Positions 2,800-9,395 of a DNA stretch of 9,395 nt are shown here, one piece after another; positions within the stretch are counted from its first letter, which is position 1; every line of letters starts with the position of its first letter. The stretch lies in IMG/VR virus record IMGVR_UViG_2690316166_000023; one strand, written 5' to 3'. Under the pieces are notes generated by a model that saw nothing but the letters and a program-made list of their open reading frames with translations, was not told the origin of the DNA and searched no databases. The position numbers and the translations under genes were made by a program. Source of the stretch: a virus (taxonomy: Duplodnaviria; Heunggongvirae; Uroviricota; Caudoviricetes).

Positions 2800-2934
2800 C
2801 CTGCGTCCCGTCAAAGGGAACCCCATTAATATTTCTTGGGGTGGCGAGTCTATTCGCGGCAACGGCGGTGCCGTCCGATGGCAGAGCATTCGCCGCCCTG
2901 TTTACCGTTTCCCGTAAACCGAGGTTTTCAGGAA
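2800..2934 (-). CDS. 5' portion of a tail-fibre variable (C-terminal) segment that begins at the crossover site and has no start codon of its own; continues leftward into masked sequence
   Basis: Minus-strand frame with first codon bases at 2938, 2935, ... reads NRVNPGFPENLGLRETVNRAANALPSDGTAVAANRLATPRNINGVPFDGTQ. The LGL-ETVNRA-N motif is, as I recall it, the conserved junction of P2 H / Mu S / P1 S-type tail fibres. In-frame TAA at 2954-2956 immediately upstream and no ATG/GTG/TTG before the masked block. Confidence 0.5.
2909..2934. other. Site-specific recombination crossover site for the adjacent invertase (gix/pix/hix/cix-type, 12-2-12 imperfect dyad)
   Basis: TTCCCGTAAACC-GA-GGTTTTCAGGAA; the right half is the reverse complement of TTCCTGAAAACC, almost identical to the left half. 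Closely resembles the Mu gix site as I recall it (TTCCTGTAAACCGAGGTTTTGGATAA). Lies 65 bp upstream of the invertase start and inside the tail-fibre motif. Confidence 0.75.
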
Positions 2935-2999
2935 AGCCAGGATTAACTCTGTTTTATTCCTCATGCGACAATTCCGGCTTTTTATAATAAGGAAATCGT

Positions 3000-3572
3000 A
3001 TGCTGATTGGGTATATCAGGGTGTCAACAAATGACCAGAATACGGCGCTACAAAGAAATGCGCTGGAATGTGCAGGATGTGAGCTGTTTTTCGAAGACAG
3101 AATAAGCGGTAAGACAAGGGAGCGTCCCGGACTTAAACGCGCATTAAAGCGACTCCGGCCAGGGGATACCCTGCTGGTCTGGAAACTGGATCGCCTTGGA
3201 CGCAGTATGCAGCACCTTGTCCTTTTAACAGAAGAACTCCGGCAACGCGGCGTTAACTTCCGCAGCATTACGGACAATATTGATACATCCACTCCCATGG
3301 GACGTTTCTTTTTCCATATAATGGGCGCGCTGGCGGAAATGGAGCGGGAACTCATTATTGAACGTACACGCGCGGGTCTTGCTGCTGCCCGTGCTCAGGG
3401 GCGTCATGGCGGCAGACCTCAGAAACTGACAGAGAAAGAGCGGGAGCAAATCGCCCGTTTGCTGGCTAATGGCGAGTCCCGTAAACAAATCGCACTGATA
3501 TTTGATATTGGCCTTTCCACCCTTTATCGTTATTTTCCTGCCTCACCAGCTCCGTCACCAAAAGTACCGTGA
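3000..3572 (+). CDS. Serine recombinase: DNA invertase of the Gin/Pin/Hin/Cin family
   Basis: 190-aa ORF, ATG 3000 with AAGGAAA ribosome-binding site upstream. N-terminus MLIGYIRVSTNDQNT (catalytic Ser in RVST), ...GDTLLVWKLDRLGRS..., ...PMGRFFFHIMGALAEMERELIIERT..., C-terminal HTH (...IALIFDIGLSTLYRYF), all hallmark invertase blocks. Adjacent crossover site. Confidence 0.95.
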   Translation: MLIGYIRVSTNDQNTALQRNALECAGCELFFEDRISGKTRERPGLKRALKRLRPGDTLLVWKLDRLGRSMQHLVLLTEELRQRGVNFRSITDNIDTSTPMGRFFFHIMGALAEMERELIIERTRAGLAAARAQGRHGGRPQKLTEKEREQIARLLANGESRKQIALIFDIGLSTLYRYFPASPAPSPKVP

Positions 3573-3657
3573 CGCTTTTTTGAATTTCCGCAAAACACAT
3601 ATTTTTCAGCGGTCGCTATTCTGACTCTGTTTAATTCAGAAACAGGCAGAAAAGACG

Positions 3658-5712
3658 ATGTCAGACTCCAAGTGGAAAATGCTCTCCGCCATGCCCGGAG
3701 AGTTTTCAGTCAAGGTTGCCGGTGGCACGGTGGCATTTATTGAAAGCCCTTTCCGCCCTTCGGGTAATAAAGGGGGGATCACCTTCGCAGACTGCGTGAT
3801 CCGCTTCAGCACGAAAGAGCCATTATGGGTAATGCCGGTATCCGGTAATCCCAGTGCAGAAATCACCAGTTCAGGCGTGACTGGCATCATTCCAATCACA
3901 TCTGACGTGGCCGGAACGCTCACGCCCTCCGACTGGAATGCACCGGATAACGCCGGGCCTTCCGGTAGCACGAATGGCAGCAGTTCAGAGCCGGAATATT
4001 ACTTTGTTGTCATTCTCGCGGGTCAGTCAAATGGCATGGCCTACGGCGAGGGGCTGCCGTTACCGGATTCGTTTGACCGCCCGGACCCACGCATTAAGCA
4101 ACTGGCACGCCGCAGTACGGTAACGCCCAACGGTACGTCGTGTACATACAACGACATCATTCCGGCAGACCACTGCCTGCATGATGTTCAGGATATGAGC
4201 GGGATAAACCACCCGAAAGCTGATCTGGCAAAAGGCCAGTACGGGACTGTCGGTCAGGGGTTGCATATTGCCAAAAAACTGCTTCCCTATATCCCACAGA
4301 ATGCCGGGATACTTCTGGTGCCCTGTTGTCGTGGCGGGTCAGCATTCACCACTGGAGCCGACGGCTCATTCAGTGAGGCCAGCGGTGCTTCCGCTGATTC
4401 TTCACGCTGGGGGGCCGGTAAACCTCTGTATCAGGACCTGGTAAGCCGCACCAAAGTCGCGCTGGCGAAAAACCCGAAAAACAAACTTCTGGCTGTGGTC
4501 TGGATGCAGGGAGAGGCAGACCTTGCCTCAGGAAGCCAGCAGCATAATAGTTTATTCACGGCCATGGTTCAGCAGTTCAGAACTGACCTGGCTCCGCTTG
4601 CTGCGCAGTGCGTGAGTGGAAATGCCACCACGGTGCCGTGGATTTGCGGTGATACCACGTATTACTGGAAAAACGCTGGCACCGATAAATATGAGGCAGT
4701 ATACGGTGGCTACAAAGGCAAGGAAGCACAGAAAATTTTCTTTGTACCGTTCCTGACGGATGAGAATGGACAGAGCACGCCAACGAATGCTCCGGCGGAA
4801 GACCCGGATATTGTGGCTGTCGGGTATTACGGTGCAGCATCCCGAACCCAGGGCAGTTTTGTTTCGACACAGCGTGACAGCCATTTCAGCTCATGGGCAC
4901 GCAGGGGCGTCATTTCAGACCGTCTGGCCTCAGCTATTATGCTCCATGCAGGGCGCACGGCTGAACTGATGCGCGGGCAGACCGTGACACCACCGGATGA
5001 GAAGCCGTCACCTGATACACCATCAAAACCGTCCACGCCACCCGCAGACACCACGACGATGAGTACGCTATTTGCTTACCGGGCATCTGAGTCTGAAGGA
5101 CGGTTGACACCACAGGGTTGGGCTGCCGGAGGTGGCAAGGCTCAAATCGTGGATGATGCCGGAGCCAGCGGGGGTAAGGCAATGAAACTGACCAAGGAAA
5201 CAGGAAGAGCCCTCTGGTACCTTGAGCATGATGCTGGTAATGGTGCGGACCTGCTGGGTAAAGGTGGTCTTGTCAGTTGTCGTTTTAAACTCGATGGCGC
5301 GCTTACGGCTAATCAGTACGCACTGGCGCTGTACTGGCCGGTTTCTGCCCTGCCGCAAGGGGTTACTCTGGAAGGAAATGCCGGTCATAACCTGCTGGCA
5401 TCGTTCTACGTACAGAGCGATGCCACAGACCTTAACGTGATGTATCACAAAGGAAACACGGCGCAGAACACGAAGCTGGGGTCATTCGGCGCATTTAATA
5501 ACGAATGGCATACGCTGGGCTTCCGTTTTGCCGGTAACAACAGTATTGAGGTGACGCCGGTCATTGATGGTAAGGACGGGACACCATTCATGCTGTCGCA
5601 GTCTCCGGTCGGCACGTTTACGGCAGACAAGTTGCGCGTGACCGATATCACTAAAAATGCGACTTACCCGGTACTGATTGACAGTATCGTGGTGGAAGTG
5701 AATAACGCGTAA
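3658..5712 (+). CDS. SGNH/SASA-family carbohydrate O-acetylesterase, three-part architecture resembling prophage NanS-p sialate O-acetylesterases
   Basis: 684-aa ORF. SGNH blocks visible: block I VILAGQSNGMAYGEG (catalytic Ser), block II CCRGGSAF, block III WMQGEADL, block V RDSHFS (Asp/His). Preceded by a ~110-aa S/T/G-rich N-terminal region and followed by a Pro/Thr-rich linker (TPPDEKPSPDTPSKPSTPPADTTT, about nt 4980-5060) and a ~220-aa C-terminal domain. Weak ribosome-binding site. The enzyme class is well supported; the sialate substrate is inferred. Confidence 0.8.
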   Translation: MSDSKWKMLSAMPGEFSVKVAGGTVAFIESPFRPSGNKGGITFADCVIRFSTKEPLWVMPVSGNPSAEITSSGVTGIIPITSDVAGTLTPSDWNAPDNAGPSGSTNGSSSEPEYYFVVILAGQSNGMAYGEGLPLPDSFDRPDPRIKQLARRSTVTPNGTSCTYNDIIPADHCLHDVQDMSGINHPKADLAKGQYGTVGQGLHIAKKLLPYIPQNAGILLVPCCRGGSAFTTGADGSFSEASGASADSSRWGAGKPLYQDLVSRTKVALAKNPKNKLLAVVWMQGEADLASGSQQHNSLFTAMVQQFRTDLAPLAAQCVSGNATTVPWICGDTTYYWKNAGTDKYEAVYGGYKGKEAQKIFFVPFLTDENGQSTPTNAPAEDPDIVAVGYYGAASRTQGSFVSTQRDSHFSSWARRGVISDRLASAIMLHAGRTAELMRGQTVTPPDEKPSPDTPSKPSTPPADTTTMSTLFAYRASESEGRLTPQGWAAGGGKAQIVDDAGASGGKAMKLTKETGRALWYLEHDAGNGADLLGKGGLVSCRFKLDGALTANQYALALYWPVSALPQGVTLEGNAGHNLLASFYVQSDATDLNVMYHKGNTAQNTKLGSFGAFNNEWHTLGFRFAGNNSIEVTPVIDGKDGTPFMLSQSPVGTFTADKLRVTDITKNATYPVLIDSIVVEVNNA

Positions 5713-5726
5713 GCAGGATAAAAAAA

Positions 5727-5761
5727 TGCCGCCGGTAAGGGAAAACAAGAAACCGGCGGCA
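5727..5761. terminator. GC-rich stem-loop immediately after the esterase stop; a run of T follows it on the minus strand only
   Basis: Stem TGCCGCCGGT (5727-5736) pairs with ACCGGCGGCA (5752-5761), 15-nt loop. Flanked by AAAAAAA (5720-5726) upstream and AAAAAG downstream, so the canonical hairpin-plus-U-tract geometry exists for leftward transcription; rightward it is a hairpin without a U-tract. Confidence 0.4.
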
Positions 5762-5856
5762 AAAAGATCGTTATATCCAAAGCAAAAAATGCAGTGCACC
5801 TTTTTACCTAACAGATATTACCGGTGTCAACACCATGTCAATAATTGGGAGGGATA

Positions 5857-6039
5857 ATGACATTTTTACAGCTTATTTTATTGTATTTCTGCACGGCAGT
5901 ATGTGCGTTATATCTGGTGAGTGGTGGTTATAAGGCCATCAGAAATTATGTTCGCCGCAAAATTGAGGACGCAGCAGCTGAAAAACTCAGTAAAACAGCG
6001 CAGGTAACTCCGCTCCCAAAAGACCCGACCCAGCCCTGA
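5857..6039 (+). CDS. Small hypothetical membrane protein (60 aa): one N-terminal hydrophobic helix and a basic tail
   Basis: ATG 5857 four nt after GGGAGGG (5847-5853); MTFLQLILLYFCTAVCALYLVSGGYKAIRNYVRRKIEDAAAEKL... The ORF-track start at 5845 is a TTG with no ribosome-binding site. No family recognised. Confidence 0.5.
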   Translation: MTFLQLILLYFCTAVCALYLVSGGYKAIRNYVRRKIEDAAAEKLSKTAQVTPLPKDPTQP

Positions 6040-6074
6040 TTGCAGGGCTTTATTCCCGCATAAGGAGGATATAC

Positions 6075-6329
6075 ATGCCAGAAATTAAAGGCACCGTCAC
6101 TGAAGACCTGGTAAAACAGGCACTGTATTCCGGTGAAGTAAATAAGTTGCTGAAAGCGCAGGTCCGCAAGGATTTTGAGGCACAAATCGACACTTACGTT
6201 GATGAAGTGCTGGCAAAACTTATTGGGCCAGCAGTTGCGGCCAGTGATGCTGATAATGAGCCGAAAACCGACGCGCAGCCAGAGCAACCAGACCCGGCTC
6301 AGCCCGGAACTGACAGTACCATGATGTAA
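6075..6329 (+). CDS. Small hypothetical acidic protein (84 aa): helical N-terminus and an Asp/Glu/Pro/Gln-rich, probably disordered, C-terminus
   Basis: ATG 6075 with near-consensus ribosome-binding site AAGGAGG (6062-6068, 6-nt spacer); 35 nt downstream of the previous ORF on the same strand, so probably one operon. No family recognised. Confidence 0.6.
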   Translation: MPEIKGTVTEDLVKQALYSGEVNKLLKAQVRKDFEAQIDTYVDEVLAKLIGPAVAASDADNEPKTDAQPEQPDPAQPGTDSTMM

Positions 6330-6386
6330 CAATACAAACCGGTGGTGTCCTCTGCCGGTTTGACACTAATGAAAACATCTTTGCCG

Positions 6387-6427
6387 CTATCCAGCCATAT
6401 GTAATCGCTGGATAGTATTTCGTATTC
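6387..6427 (+). terminator. Candidate intrinsic terminator for the two-gene small operon
   Basis: Inverted repeat CTATCCAGC (6387-6395) / GCTGGATAG (6407-6415), 11-nt loop, followed by T-rich TATTTCGTATTC. A second imperfect hairpin sits at about 6335-6360. Confidence 0.35.
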
Positions 6428-6496
6428 AGAAATATAGCTGCTTATGGAGCAGTCAATCCTGCTTCCCCATCCGGGCAGGCAAATGAACCGGTATCA

Positions 6497-6790
6497 TTAG
6501 TCCGATTCACGCTTTTGTAGAATCGTTCCCAGAATGCTATACAGCTCATTAGCCTGTTGCTCCATCATTGAGACGGAGGCTATACGGTGCAAAGTGATTT
6601 CAGGAGGTGGCACACCTCCATCTTCTTGCTGTGGAGGAAAAACATAAGATTTAATAAAAAAGTTGAAGCATATGAACTCTCCCGCACTCGAACTGTATTT
6701 GCAGGCATCTGAATAATCGGAAAAATAATCATTATAGATTTCCGCATTTTCAATCATTTTTCGATTTCTCGTCGTTACATGATTGTCCAT
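6497..6790 (-). CDS. Hypothetical protein (97 aa), AT-rich, transcribed divergently from com-mom
   Basis: Minus-strand ATG at 6790-6788 with AAGAGG 5 nt upstream (complement of about 6796-6801). MDNHVTTRNRKMIENAEIYNDYFSDYSDACKYSS...; no family recognised. Composition appears more AT-rich than the flanking genes. Confidence 0.55.
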   Translation of the reverse strand: MDNHVTTRNRKMIENAEIYNDYFSDYSDACKYSSSAGEFICFNFFIKSYVFPPQQEDGGVPPPEITLHRIASVSMMEQQANELYSILGTILQKRESD

Positions 6791-6978
6791 AGCAGCCTCT
6801 TACGCTGGCAATTAACCAATTGACTTCTATAAATTAGTTGATTTGTTTGCTTTGCGGTATTCAAATGTACAATCATTCAGCACTTATGCGTTACAGCACC
6901 GTTTAAAATTAGTGATCAAACTCATAAATTTTCGCTAATGACATTTCGTGTTATTTGTTGTATCAATTAAATAAATCA

Positions 6979-7003
6979 AATCGATCGTTTTTGTCGATCG
7001 ATT
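6979..7003. promoter_or_regulatory. Palindromic operator-like element with two Dam (GATC) sites upstream of com-mom
   Basis: AATCGATCG-tttttgt-CGATCGATT: 9-bp arms in perfect inverted repeat, GATC at 6984-6987 and 6996-6999, a third GATC at 6914-6917. About 45-65 bp upstream of the com start. Mu mom is known to be controlled through clustered GATC sites whose methylation blocks OxyR binding. Confidence 0.45.
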
Positions 7004-7046
7004 GAGTGATAAAGATATCAACAACAAAGCAGGAGGTTATGCGGCC

Positions 7047-7247
7047 ATGTATCGAAACATACGGTGCCGACATTGTAACAAGCTACTGGCACGAGCCAGC
7101 TTCAGTTATCTGGAAGTTAAATGTCCGCGCTGTAAAACCCTCAATCAAATCACATCTCAGAGCGCCACAGAGCACCCCACATACACAAGGAAATCCTGTC
7201 GTGGGGAACAGAAAGCAAGTTACATCCCGTATCATCAGCACGCCTGA
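7047..7247 (+). CDS. com: Com-like zinc-finger translational activator
   Basis: 66-aa ORF, ATG 7047 ten nt after AGGAGG (7031-7036). [30 protein letters not shown]... has the Cys-X2-Cys...Cys-X2-Cys pattern and aligns block-wise with Mu Com as I recall it (MKSIRCKNCNKLL...IEIRCPRCK...). Its 3' end overlaps the following mom-like frame. The ORF-track start at 7002 is a TTG extension. Confidence 0.8.
7175..7206 (+). promoter_or_regulatory. RNA hairpin that would sequester the putative mom GTG start codon and its ribosome-binding site (candidate Com-responsive translational switch)
   Basis: CCCCAC (7175-7180) is the exact complement of GTGGGG (7201-7206); the 20-nt loop holds AAGGAAA; the GTG at 7201-7203 is in the mom frame and inside the 3' arm. 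It lies inside the 3' end of com, the arrangement known for Mu. Confidence 0.4.
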
Positions 7248-7938
7248 ACTTATTCACTATAACGACAATATCGTCGGTTATGGCTCCCGTGAGTTACGGG
7301 TTGAGACAATAAGTTGCTGGCTGGCCCGGCTGGTCGTCGTCAATAAACATTACAGCCATCGTTTCGTAAATAATTCCTACCTTCATCTGGGCATATTTTC
7401 AGAACGGGAGCTGGTTGGCGTAATGCAATGGGGTTATGCCCTTAATCCAAACAATGGTGCACGCGTCGTAACTGGCACGCAGAACCGCGAATATATGGAG
7501 CTTAACCGGTTATGGCTGCATGACTGTATGCCGAGAAACTCCGAATCAAGGGCAATCAGTTACGCGCTCAAACTAATCAGACAACTTTATCCGCAGGTGC
7601 AGTGGGTTCAGTCGTTTGCAGATGAGCGTTGTGGCTGTCTTGGTGTCGTGTACCAGGCAAGCAATTTTGATTATGTAGGCAGTCATGAAACAACATTCTA
7701 TGAACTTGATGGCGAGTGGTATCACGAGATTTGCAAGAATGCAATCAAACGAGGAGGACAGCGAGGTGAACATCTGCGGGCTAATATCGACAGAGCCAGT
7801 GTTCATAAATTCCGTCAGTTTCGTTACATCCGGTTTCTGGACAAGAGAGCCAGAAAACGCCTTAACACAAAGCTATTCAAAGTCCAGCCTTACCCAAAAC
7901 CACAAACAGTTAAAACTGGTTTGAAAGAGAGTGAATGA
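7201..7938 (+). CDS. mom: Mom-like DNA modification protein (adenine-modifying, acyltransferase-like); start uncertain: GTG 7201 proposed, maximal ORF begins at 7006
   Basis: Long ORF ending at 7938 that overlaps com in another frame, which is the signature com-mom arrangement. GTG 7201 has AAGGA 8 nt upstream and sits in the hairpin, giving 245 aa (Mu Mom is about 230 aa). Assignment rests on context; I cannot recall Mom sequence well enough to align it. Confidence 0.6.
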
Positions 7939-7995
7939 ACGCTTAAAAACTCATTCTAAAACTCAAAAGAAAAGCGCCGATTTAGTATCAAATAA

Positions 7996-8862
<867 letters not shown>

Positions 8863-8975: not shown

Positions 8976-9395
8976 TCAAAGAAACCATTCCGGCTTAACG
9001 CCAAATCGGGCTGAAAGTGCCTTAATGTGGGATATCGTCAGGGATCGTTGTCCAGACAAAATCTGACTGACCAGGGATTTAGAGCCGATTTCGTTCTTCA
9101 AATCCGCATAGGTCAGATTATGTTGATCAATCAGCGTGCGAAGTAACGCCACGCCAACAGGCATTGCCGCAACGGCTTTGTCGAACTCTGCAAACTCTTG
9201 GTTGTTGTTTTCATATTCTGCAATGCGGCTCGCCAGAAAGTCGATAAGTGGATTGGTGTCATCTTCTTCAATCAAATATTCGACCAGTTCCAGTGCTTCA
9301 CGATAATCATCTTCTGAGTCACTACCTCCCAGAAAGGGGACTGCATTGACCAGTTCTCTTGTTGCTTTAACAGCGCGTGCAGCATTAGCAGTCAT
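8976..9395 (-). CDS. HigA-family antitoxin / XRE-type HTH regulator
   Basis: 139-aa minus-strand ORF whose ATG is the last three bases of the window. MTANAARAVKATRELVNAVPFLGG...NPLIDFLASRIAEYE...EFAEFDKAVAAMPVGVALLRTLIDQHNLTYADL...IGSKSLVSQILSGQRSLTISHIKALSARFGVKPEWF matches E. coli HigA block for block as I recall it. The partner toxin gene would lie upstream, outside the window. Confidence 0.8.
   Translation of the reverse strand: MTANAARAVKATRELVNAVPFLGGSDSEDDYREALELVEYLIEEDDTNPLIDFLASRIAEYENNNQEFAEFDKAVAAMPVGVALLRTLIDQHNLTYADLKNEIGSKSLVSQILSGQRSLTISHIKALSARFGVKPEWFL

Follow-up and report, generated by a model that had tools for sequence, protein, structure and literature searches.

What do the two overlapping open reading frames (ORFs) at positions 7047-7938 of the window (the whole stretch of 9,395 nucleotides that was analyzed) encode, and how would their expression be controlled? 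We read them, with a probability of about 0.9, as the com-mom operon of an Sp18-type, Mu-like transposable prophage of E. coli, whose right end lies at 8044 within ascB and whose regulation and chemistry would be those of Mu. The Mu reference was AF083977 (com at 35768-35956, mom at 35907-36602), together with the Mom structure PDB 8bv8, and the features of the locus are collected in Table 1.

Table 1. Features of the com-mom locus and the adjoining prophage end, in window coordinates.
Feature	Coordinates	Strand	Description
Distal GATC (Dam site)	6914-6917		Third of three GATCs within 86 bp upstream of com
GATC inverted repeat	6979-7003		Perfect 9-bp repeat, AATCGATCG-N7-CGATCGATT, with two GATCs; homologous to the Dam/OxyR region upstream of Mu Pmom (function by analogy)
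com Shine-Dalgarno GGAGG	7032-7036	+	Read from the sequence; 10 nt 5' of the ATG at 7047
com	7047-7247	+	66 aa, ATG start; CCCC zinc-ribbon translational activator (function from homology)
Putative Com-binding RNA hairpin	7162-7175	+	Stem GCGC/GCAC with a C·A mismatch, hexaloop CACAGA, motif CC(N3)GAG
TIS (translation inhibition structure)	7175-7206	+	CCCCAC (7175-7180) pairs with GUGGGG (7201-7206); loop holds the mom Shine-Dalgarno AAGGAAA (7187-7193)
mom	7201-7938	+	245 aa, GTG start; GNAT-fold Gly-tRNA(Gly)-dependent adenine N6 aminoacyltransferase, DNA 'momylation' (by homology)
Prophage right end	7939-8044		Repeated GTATCAAA motifs at 7985 and 8020; terminus ...GCCGCGCTATA

The initial annotation had proposed two overlapping ORFs in this interval, the downstream one in another frame in the manner of Mu, and its coordinates prove exact. 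PGAP calls the same pair in the prophage of E. coli AF39, to which window positions 2800-8027 are 99.9% identical (positions 487-2799 of the window are masked by N); the AF39 coding sequences at 9348-9548 and 9502-10239 map to 7047-7247 and 7201-7938, respectively. From the ORF table and the sequence, the two genes overlap by 47 nt, mom being read in the +1 frame with respect to com. Mu has the same gene order at the right end of a transposable phage, with an overlap of 50 nt that likewise places mom in the +1 frame.

When the upstream product is compared with known families, it matches Pfam PF10122 (Zn_ribbon_Com) with E = 7.5e-13 and 48.2 bits (cutoff 22.9), PHROG 13819 ('gpCom control of modification', E = 2.9e-13) and also PHROG 6417 ('translational regulator'), and PGAP names it 'Com family protein' in AF39. 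The zinc ligands of Mu Com are Cys6, Cys9, Cys26 and Cys29 (PMC3299994), and Cys7, Cys10, Cys26 and Cys29 of the window protein are in register with them, so that the CCCC zinc ribbon is shared and the earlier description of a zinc-finger, Com-like ORF is borne out by both the family match and the four retained cysteines. Identity to Mu Com is only 47%, and the window protein is 4 residues longer. A scan of NCBIfam release 20 with Com gave a single zinc-finger match, which was below threshold, and a PDB search returned weak matches to ribosomal S27e zinc ribbons and nothing else.

The downstream ORF had initially been assigned to Mom by context and size only, and this assignment is now proven by sequence. 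Its product matches PF25680 over the full length of the model (1-202 of 202; E = 7.8e-78, 261.2 bits, gathering cutoff 27.1), PHROG 1384 ('Mom-like DNA modification protein', E = 2.8e-83) and the crystal structure 8bv8 ('Methylcarbamoylase mom', E = 2.4e-123, 78% identity). Together, the Pfam E-values of the Com and Mom products confirm the com-mom observation far beyond chance. An alignment to Mu Com and Mom had been suggested as a check, and it gives, beside the 47% for Com, 78.2-78.4% identity for Mom over 229-231 residues (tblastn; global alignment 181/231). This is an orthologue-level value, and judged by it the window protein is an orthologue of the characterized Mu enzyme. In RefSeq, the AF39 protein that is 100% identical to window Mom carries the name 'tRNA(Gly)-dependent adenine aminoacyltransferase Mom'; the scan of NCBIfam release 20 gave no Mom match, and the RefSeq name presumably rests on a type of evidence other than a match in that release.

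Mu Mom has a GNAT fold and moves glycine from Gly-tRNA(Gly) onto the N6 of adenine in double-stranded DNA, after which an on-base rearrangement yields N6-carbamoylmethyl-dA (PMC13219725, 2026). The conversion of adenine to a carbamoylmethyl derivative, as first stated for this locus, consequently stands for its end product, while the route is updated to glycine transfer from Gly-tRNA(Gly) followed by rearrangement on the base (PMC13219725). Among the residues examined for catalysis and dimerization, Mu Mom loses all or most of its activity when W48, H58, Y59, R111, S124, D149, R151, Y159 or W181 is mutated, whereas Y28, which was mutated too, is not important for it (PMC13219725). In that paper's numbering, for which a 10-residue offset of the GenBank CDS was corrected before the comparison, the nine functional residues correspond to W40, H50, Y51, R103, S116, D141, R143, Y151 and W173 of the window protein, and Y28 to the also conserved Y20, so that 10 of 10 compared residues are identical. 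Mu Mom also becomes inactive when the HTH-like insertion that is specific to Mom (Mu residues ~175-209) is deleted (PMC13219725); in the window protein this insertion is identical at 28 of 35 positions (80%) and aligns without gaps. On the strength of its 78% identity to the solved structure 8bv8, window Mom is predicted to share the GNAT fold of Mu Mom; a single-sequence AlphaFold2 model of the 245-residue protein had a mean pLDDT of 31.4 and a pTM of 0.24, values too low for the model to be of use. Relative to Mu, window Mom has an N-terminal insertion of 2 residues and a C-terminal tail of 12 further residues, and its gene lacks the upstream ATG that lies behind the 241-residue numbering of Mu Mom.

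In Mu, the target of Com is CC(N)2-3GAG, presented in a short hexaloop hairpin closed by a C-G pair, and the TIS that adjoins this hairpin includes the GUG start of mom in its stem (PMC6483171). Both elements can be recognized in the window, where, as in Mu, the GUG is buried in a CCCAC/GUGGG stem and a CC(N3)GAG loop lies just 5' of it. The putative Com motif, CCACAGAG (CC-ACA-GAG), occupies 7165-7172, with C7165-G7172 as the closing pair, and its hairpin abuts the TIS on the 5' side. In this E. coli lineage, unlike in Mu, C and A are mismatched at the third pair of the hairpin stem, and the hairpin is thermodynamically marginal: in a ViennaRNA fold the Mu-type register was not predicted, and the Com hairpin was not the minimum-energy structure. 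We aligned six sequences, namely Mu, the window copy with two further ones from E. coli, and one copy each from Edwardsiella and Scandinavium. In this alignment the 4-bp hairpin stem covaries, with changes on both sides at three pairs, and 94% of all cells are paired, compared with 22-56% when the partners are slid. The TIS folds with -12.6 kcal/mol (z = -2.1; 7 of 200 shuffles fold equally well), and its 5-bp core CCCAC/GUGGG is invariant in all six aligned sequences, around loops of 11 to 20 nt. The window stem has 6 bp where Mu has 5, and the loop 20 nt where Mu has 11; in the window, unlike in Mu, an inner helix is predicted within the loop over the Shine-Dalgarno sequence. A scan of the whole window at the Rfam gathering thresholds gave no match; neither the Com target nor the TIS has a curated family.

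A sister prophage in E. coli SW070917 carries a DNA cytosine methyltransferase gene in place of mom. Its com, hairpin, TIS and GUG are near-identical to those of the window (one substitution), and the two sequences diverge ~10 nt past the GUG. That SW070917 keeps the com-hairpin-TIS-GUG segment before another gene argues that this segment is a functional control unit, and the swap is the behavior that would be expected of a self-contained control cassette. Other Com-controlled methyltransferase cassettes of Mu-like prophages are known from the literature (FluMu hin1523, Pnme1 nma1821 and B3 ORF47/48; PMC3299994); these and SW070917 resemble the window in having com and a control region before a DNA-modification gene at the right end, but their enzyme is unrelated to Mom, whereas the window enzyme is a true Mom.

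The Mu mom promoter is weak and needs the activator C, with Dam methylation and OxyR acting as a gate at the GATCs that precede it (PMC3378877). In the window, the inverted repeat upstream of com matches AATCGATCG..GATCGATT of Mu base by base, with invariant GATC columns, and by analogy with the Mu literature (PMC3378877) it may have a Dam/OxyR role. GATC occurs 12 times in the window against 26 expected, with three occurrences at 6914, 6983 and 6996 and none inside com-mom. In Mu, as well as in the copies from Edwardsiella, Scandinavium and Symbiopectobacterium/Pantoea, com is likewise preceded by a GATC cluster. Two of the window sites align with the three of Mu, and the third is 66 bp further upstream. 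Between the GATC region and the -10 element, Mu has the operator of its C protein, with the consensus TTAT-N6-ATAA. This operator is absent from the aligned window segment GATTGAGTGATAAAGATATC, which is 27 nt shorter than in Mu (the last GATC is 47 nt from the com ATG in the window and 74 nt in Mu). A promoter scan of the + strand upstream of com found no sigma-70-like site, and a tentative -10 element, TAAAGAT at 7010-7016, which resembles TAAGAT of Mu, was rejected for want of conservation in the O157 and CI5 copies. The segment from the GATC dyad to the com Shine-Dalgarno differs among the E. coli copies.

Given the Mor-family activator gene of the AF39 sister prophage, it is likely that activation uses a site specific to this lineage. 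A broader proposal, which we regard as possible but doubtful, is that control of the Sp18-type mom operon has been rewired, with no C operator, the GATC repeat ~27 bp nearer com, Dam and OxyR acting at or within the core promoter and a different site for a Mor/C-family protein, and that com-hairpin-TIS-GUG is a portable switch, recombined onto either mom or the cytosine methyltransferase of SW070917 with a breakpoint ~10 nt after the start.

The module had also been placed at the terminus of a mobile element, and the comparison of four copies at four insertion sites agrees with this and sets the prophage end at 8044. The four copies have a common sequence up to ...GCCGCGCTATA and are unrelated beyond it; they are inserted in ascB (the window), in dcyD, upstream of garL and in an xdh gene, and homology to ascB in the window begins at 8045. 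An end at 8027, where the megablast match stops, was rejected: the match breaks off there owing to a deletion, since after 8027 the window copy is 22 bp shorter between two CGGTATCAAA repeats than each of the other three. The CGGTATCAAA repeats near the terminus are probably transposase-binding sites. The AF39 prophage is flanked by both halves of the D-cysteine desulfhydrase gene dcyD and encodes a transposase, a MuB-like AAA ATPase, Kil, Gam, the Mor-family activator, a Mu gpT-family head protein and contractile-tail genes. Because of the terminus shared by the four copies and the Mu-like character of the AF39 prophage, we take the module to lie, like its Mu counterpart, at the right-hand end of a transposable prophage.

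Mu gin directly adjoins com, whereas in the window ~3.4 kb separate the invertase (3000-3572) from com and hold genes for a NanS-like esterase, DUF1378 and DUF826 proteins and a small minus-strand ORF, an arrangement also present in the O157:H7 and CI5 copies. The Sp18-type prophages (O157:H7 F7508, CI5 and AF39) have the order invertase, DUF6645/SASA esterase, DUF1378, DUF826, small minus-strand ORF, com, mom and prophage end in common with the window, their com-mom DNA is 92-100% identical and they have the same terminus; the window copy differs from them in its ascB insertion site and in the deletion near the terminus.

Three other readings of the locus have to be weighed against this one, two of which concern Mom itself. 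The mom frame is open upstream to 7006 in the window, the full ORF comprising 310 residues, and a longer Mom could in principle be made through the com region from 7006 (GTG) or 7039 (ATG), in which case the overlap would be a long dual-coding region. In the O157:H7 copy, however, this frame is interrupted by a stop codon inside com, and there is no ATG, GTG or TTG from that stop to the GTG at 7201; the extension to 7006 is therefore non-coding, and on account of the stop the longer isoform from either start was rejected. The ATG at 7039 is moreover only 2 nt away from GGAGG, the Pfam Mom match starts only at residue 96 of the 310-residue ORF, and the GTG at 7201, which PGAP also picks, aligns with the GUG start of Mu mom within the conserved TIS, all of which leaves a longer Mom with a negligible probability. 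A functionally diverged Mom, using another aminoacyl-tRNA or acyl donor or recognizing another DNA sequence context and so producing a different modification, is very improbable as well. The initial annotation had allowed that a divergent Mom homologue could carry a different chemistry, and it is true that 22% of the residues differ from Mu Mom, that the additional N-terminal residues fall in the basic tail and are joined by the C-terminal extension, and that, according to the authors of PMC13219725, co-substrate specificity is not predictable from structure alone. Yet the protein is not very divergent: the compared Mu residues and the HTH-like DNA-binding insertion, the latter free of indels, are kept as described above, the overall identity is that of an orthologue, and RefSeq gives the identical AF39 protein the function of the Mu enzyme. 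The idea of a different chemistry is consequently unsupported.

The remaining alternative accepts com and mom as genuine but places them in a crippled or permanently silent prophage copy, as passengers that are never expressed in this strain. The window copy is without one CGGTATCAAA unit of 22 bp near its terminus that the other three copies have, the rest of the prophage lies outside the window, part of the stretch inside it (487-2799) is N-masked, and Sp18 is cited from a paper on the O157 'defective prophage pool' (reference 15 in PMC3299994). Because of the end deletion, and with most of the prophage outside the window, this copy may never be induced. Against permanent silence, both ORFs are intact and their proteins are 100% identical to those on at least 1000 contigs, 2800-8027 is nearly identical to an apparently complete prophage, and the 22-bp difference, which leaves com-mom untouched, could equally be an assembly or slippage variant. 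On balance we consider a silent passenger unlikely, and prefer to read the module as a com-mom operon with Mu-type regulation and chemistry.

A mechanism for this operon can be proposed on the model of Mu, from which we infer the enzymatic activity, the dependence on Com and the control by Dam and OxyR alike. During late lytic growth, the operon would be transcribed from a weak, activator-dependent promoter, at which the upstream GATCs would let host Dam methylation and OxyR gate transcription. In the resulting mRNA, the GUG of mom at 7201 lies, at the sequence level, in a G/C-rich 6-bp stem (7175-7180 with 7201-7206) that would bury it. Com would be translated first and bind the CC-ACA-GAG loop at 7165-7172, whereupon the stem would open and mom could be translated. 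Mom would then take glycine from charged tRNA(Gly) and attach it to the N6 of adenines in double-stranded DNA, the glycine adduct would rearrange to N6-carbamoylmethyl-adenine, and the modified phage genome would be protected from many restriction endonucleases. The prediction that follows is that virions from the window prophage should contain N6-carbamoylmethyl-adenine and be resistant to many restriction systems.

Mom and its regulators had already been noted at this position in the Mu-like phage Sp18 (PMC3299994), and the com-mom finding, though correct, is an ordinary one, the pair being well known and annotated in hundreds of genomes. The module shows where a Mu-like prophage, by which ascB is disrupted, ends on its right side, and it has little import beyond correct annotation. 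What remains is only mildly interesting and is regulatory: the C operator is lacking, the GATC dyad is displaced, the Com hairpin contains a mismatch, and in a related locus mom has been exchanged for a methyltransferase. Neither would be a discovery in itself, but after the demonstration of Gly-tRNA(Gly) dependence in 2026, a natural Mom variant with 78% identity could be a comparison point for structure-function work, as could the divergent Com with its RNA target. The module is common in public data: the exact Mom and Com proteins each occur on at least 1000 public contigs, under the names 'protein mom' and 'Com family', and at 90% DNA identity or more the module is present in 233 of 5426 complete E. 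coli genomes.

The sister Mu-like prophage of E. coli SW070917 carries the same com gene, Com hairpin, translation-inhibition structure (the stem that buries the mom GUG start) and GUG start as the window, joined there to a DNA cytosine methyltransferase that replaces mom (L025 3001-4207), and the breakpoint lies approximately 10 nt past the start codon. Com variants of 61 aa are found on at least 1000 contigs, and these may belong to the com–methyltransferase form.

When the window is compared with Mu, it is apparent that it carries cargo, located between a Gin-like invertase and com, that Mu lacks: the gene for a 684-aa protein, DUF1378 and DUF826. We take the 684-aa protein to be NanS-p-like, as in Stx phages; lambdoid prophages typically carry genes of the NanS-p-like, DUF1378 and DUF826 families. 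The 97-aa ORF, which had no match in Pfam, PHROG or NCBIfam, varies more than any other gene in this region, being frameshifted in the prophages of both O157:H7 F7508 and SW070917, and some copies are homologous to the window only from ~6952 onward.

Features of the window and the regions compared at the prophage right end
Feature	Position	Strand	Remark
Gin-like invertase	3000-3572
684-aa protein	3658-5712		sialate O-acetylesterase domain and DUF6645
DUF1378	5845-6039
DUF826	6075-6329
97-aa ORF	6497-6790	-	annotated as 86 aa in AF39
Sigma-70-like promoter	6811-6782	-	just upstream of 97-aa ORF
Host HTH_3 (XRE-family) gene	8976-9395	-	reaches window edge
Prophage end	8020-8044		compared with the three below
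L002 prophage copy	10311-10375
L003 prophage copy	5059-5123
L004 prophage copy	2817-2881

Ahead of the invertase, positions 487-2799 are mostly masked by four runs of N (179, 1131, 499 and 353 bases). The short unmasked islands at 666-707 and 2358-2446 match the tail-fibre region of the sister prophage in E. coli isolate AF39 in the opposite orientation, whereas both flanks (32-486 and 2800 onward) match that prophage in the same orientation. This contrast suggests that the masked stretch is a Gin-type invertible tail-fibre segment, captured in the other orientation.

Comparison of copies at the right end revealed that 22 bp (TGAAATGCAAATCGGTATCAAA), present in all three other copies between two CGGTATCAAA direct repeats, are missing from the window. 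Because of this absence, the window copy is short of one of three GTATCAAA motifs, which are probably transposase-binding sites. Slippage may have deleted these 22 bp, their absence may be an artefact of the assembly, or the change may be one that disables transposition. Within 8040-8050 the prophage terminates in ...GCGCTATA and not in ...CA, unlike Mu, whose own end is ...GCCGCTTCA.

The insertion truncated host ascB, of which the C-terminal part alone remains (8045-8862; Glyco_hydro_1 model positions 189-452). The host HTH_3 gene beyond it is unrelated to the com–mom module; its neighbor in other genomes is a HigB-family toxin, and it is therefore probably a HigA-type antitoxin. The AF39 prophage also contains, between virion morphogenesis and minor head genes, a feature annotated as 'tRNA-OTHER' (L024 11517-11596), a curious presence because Mom consumes charged tRNA(Gly); the corresponding region falls beyond the window.
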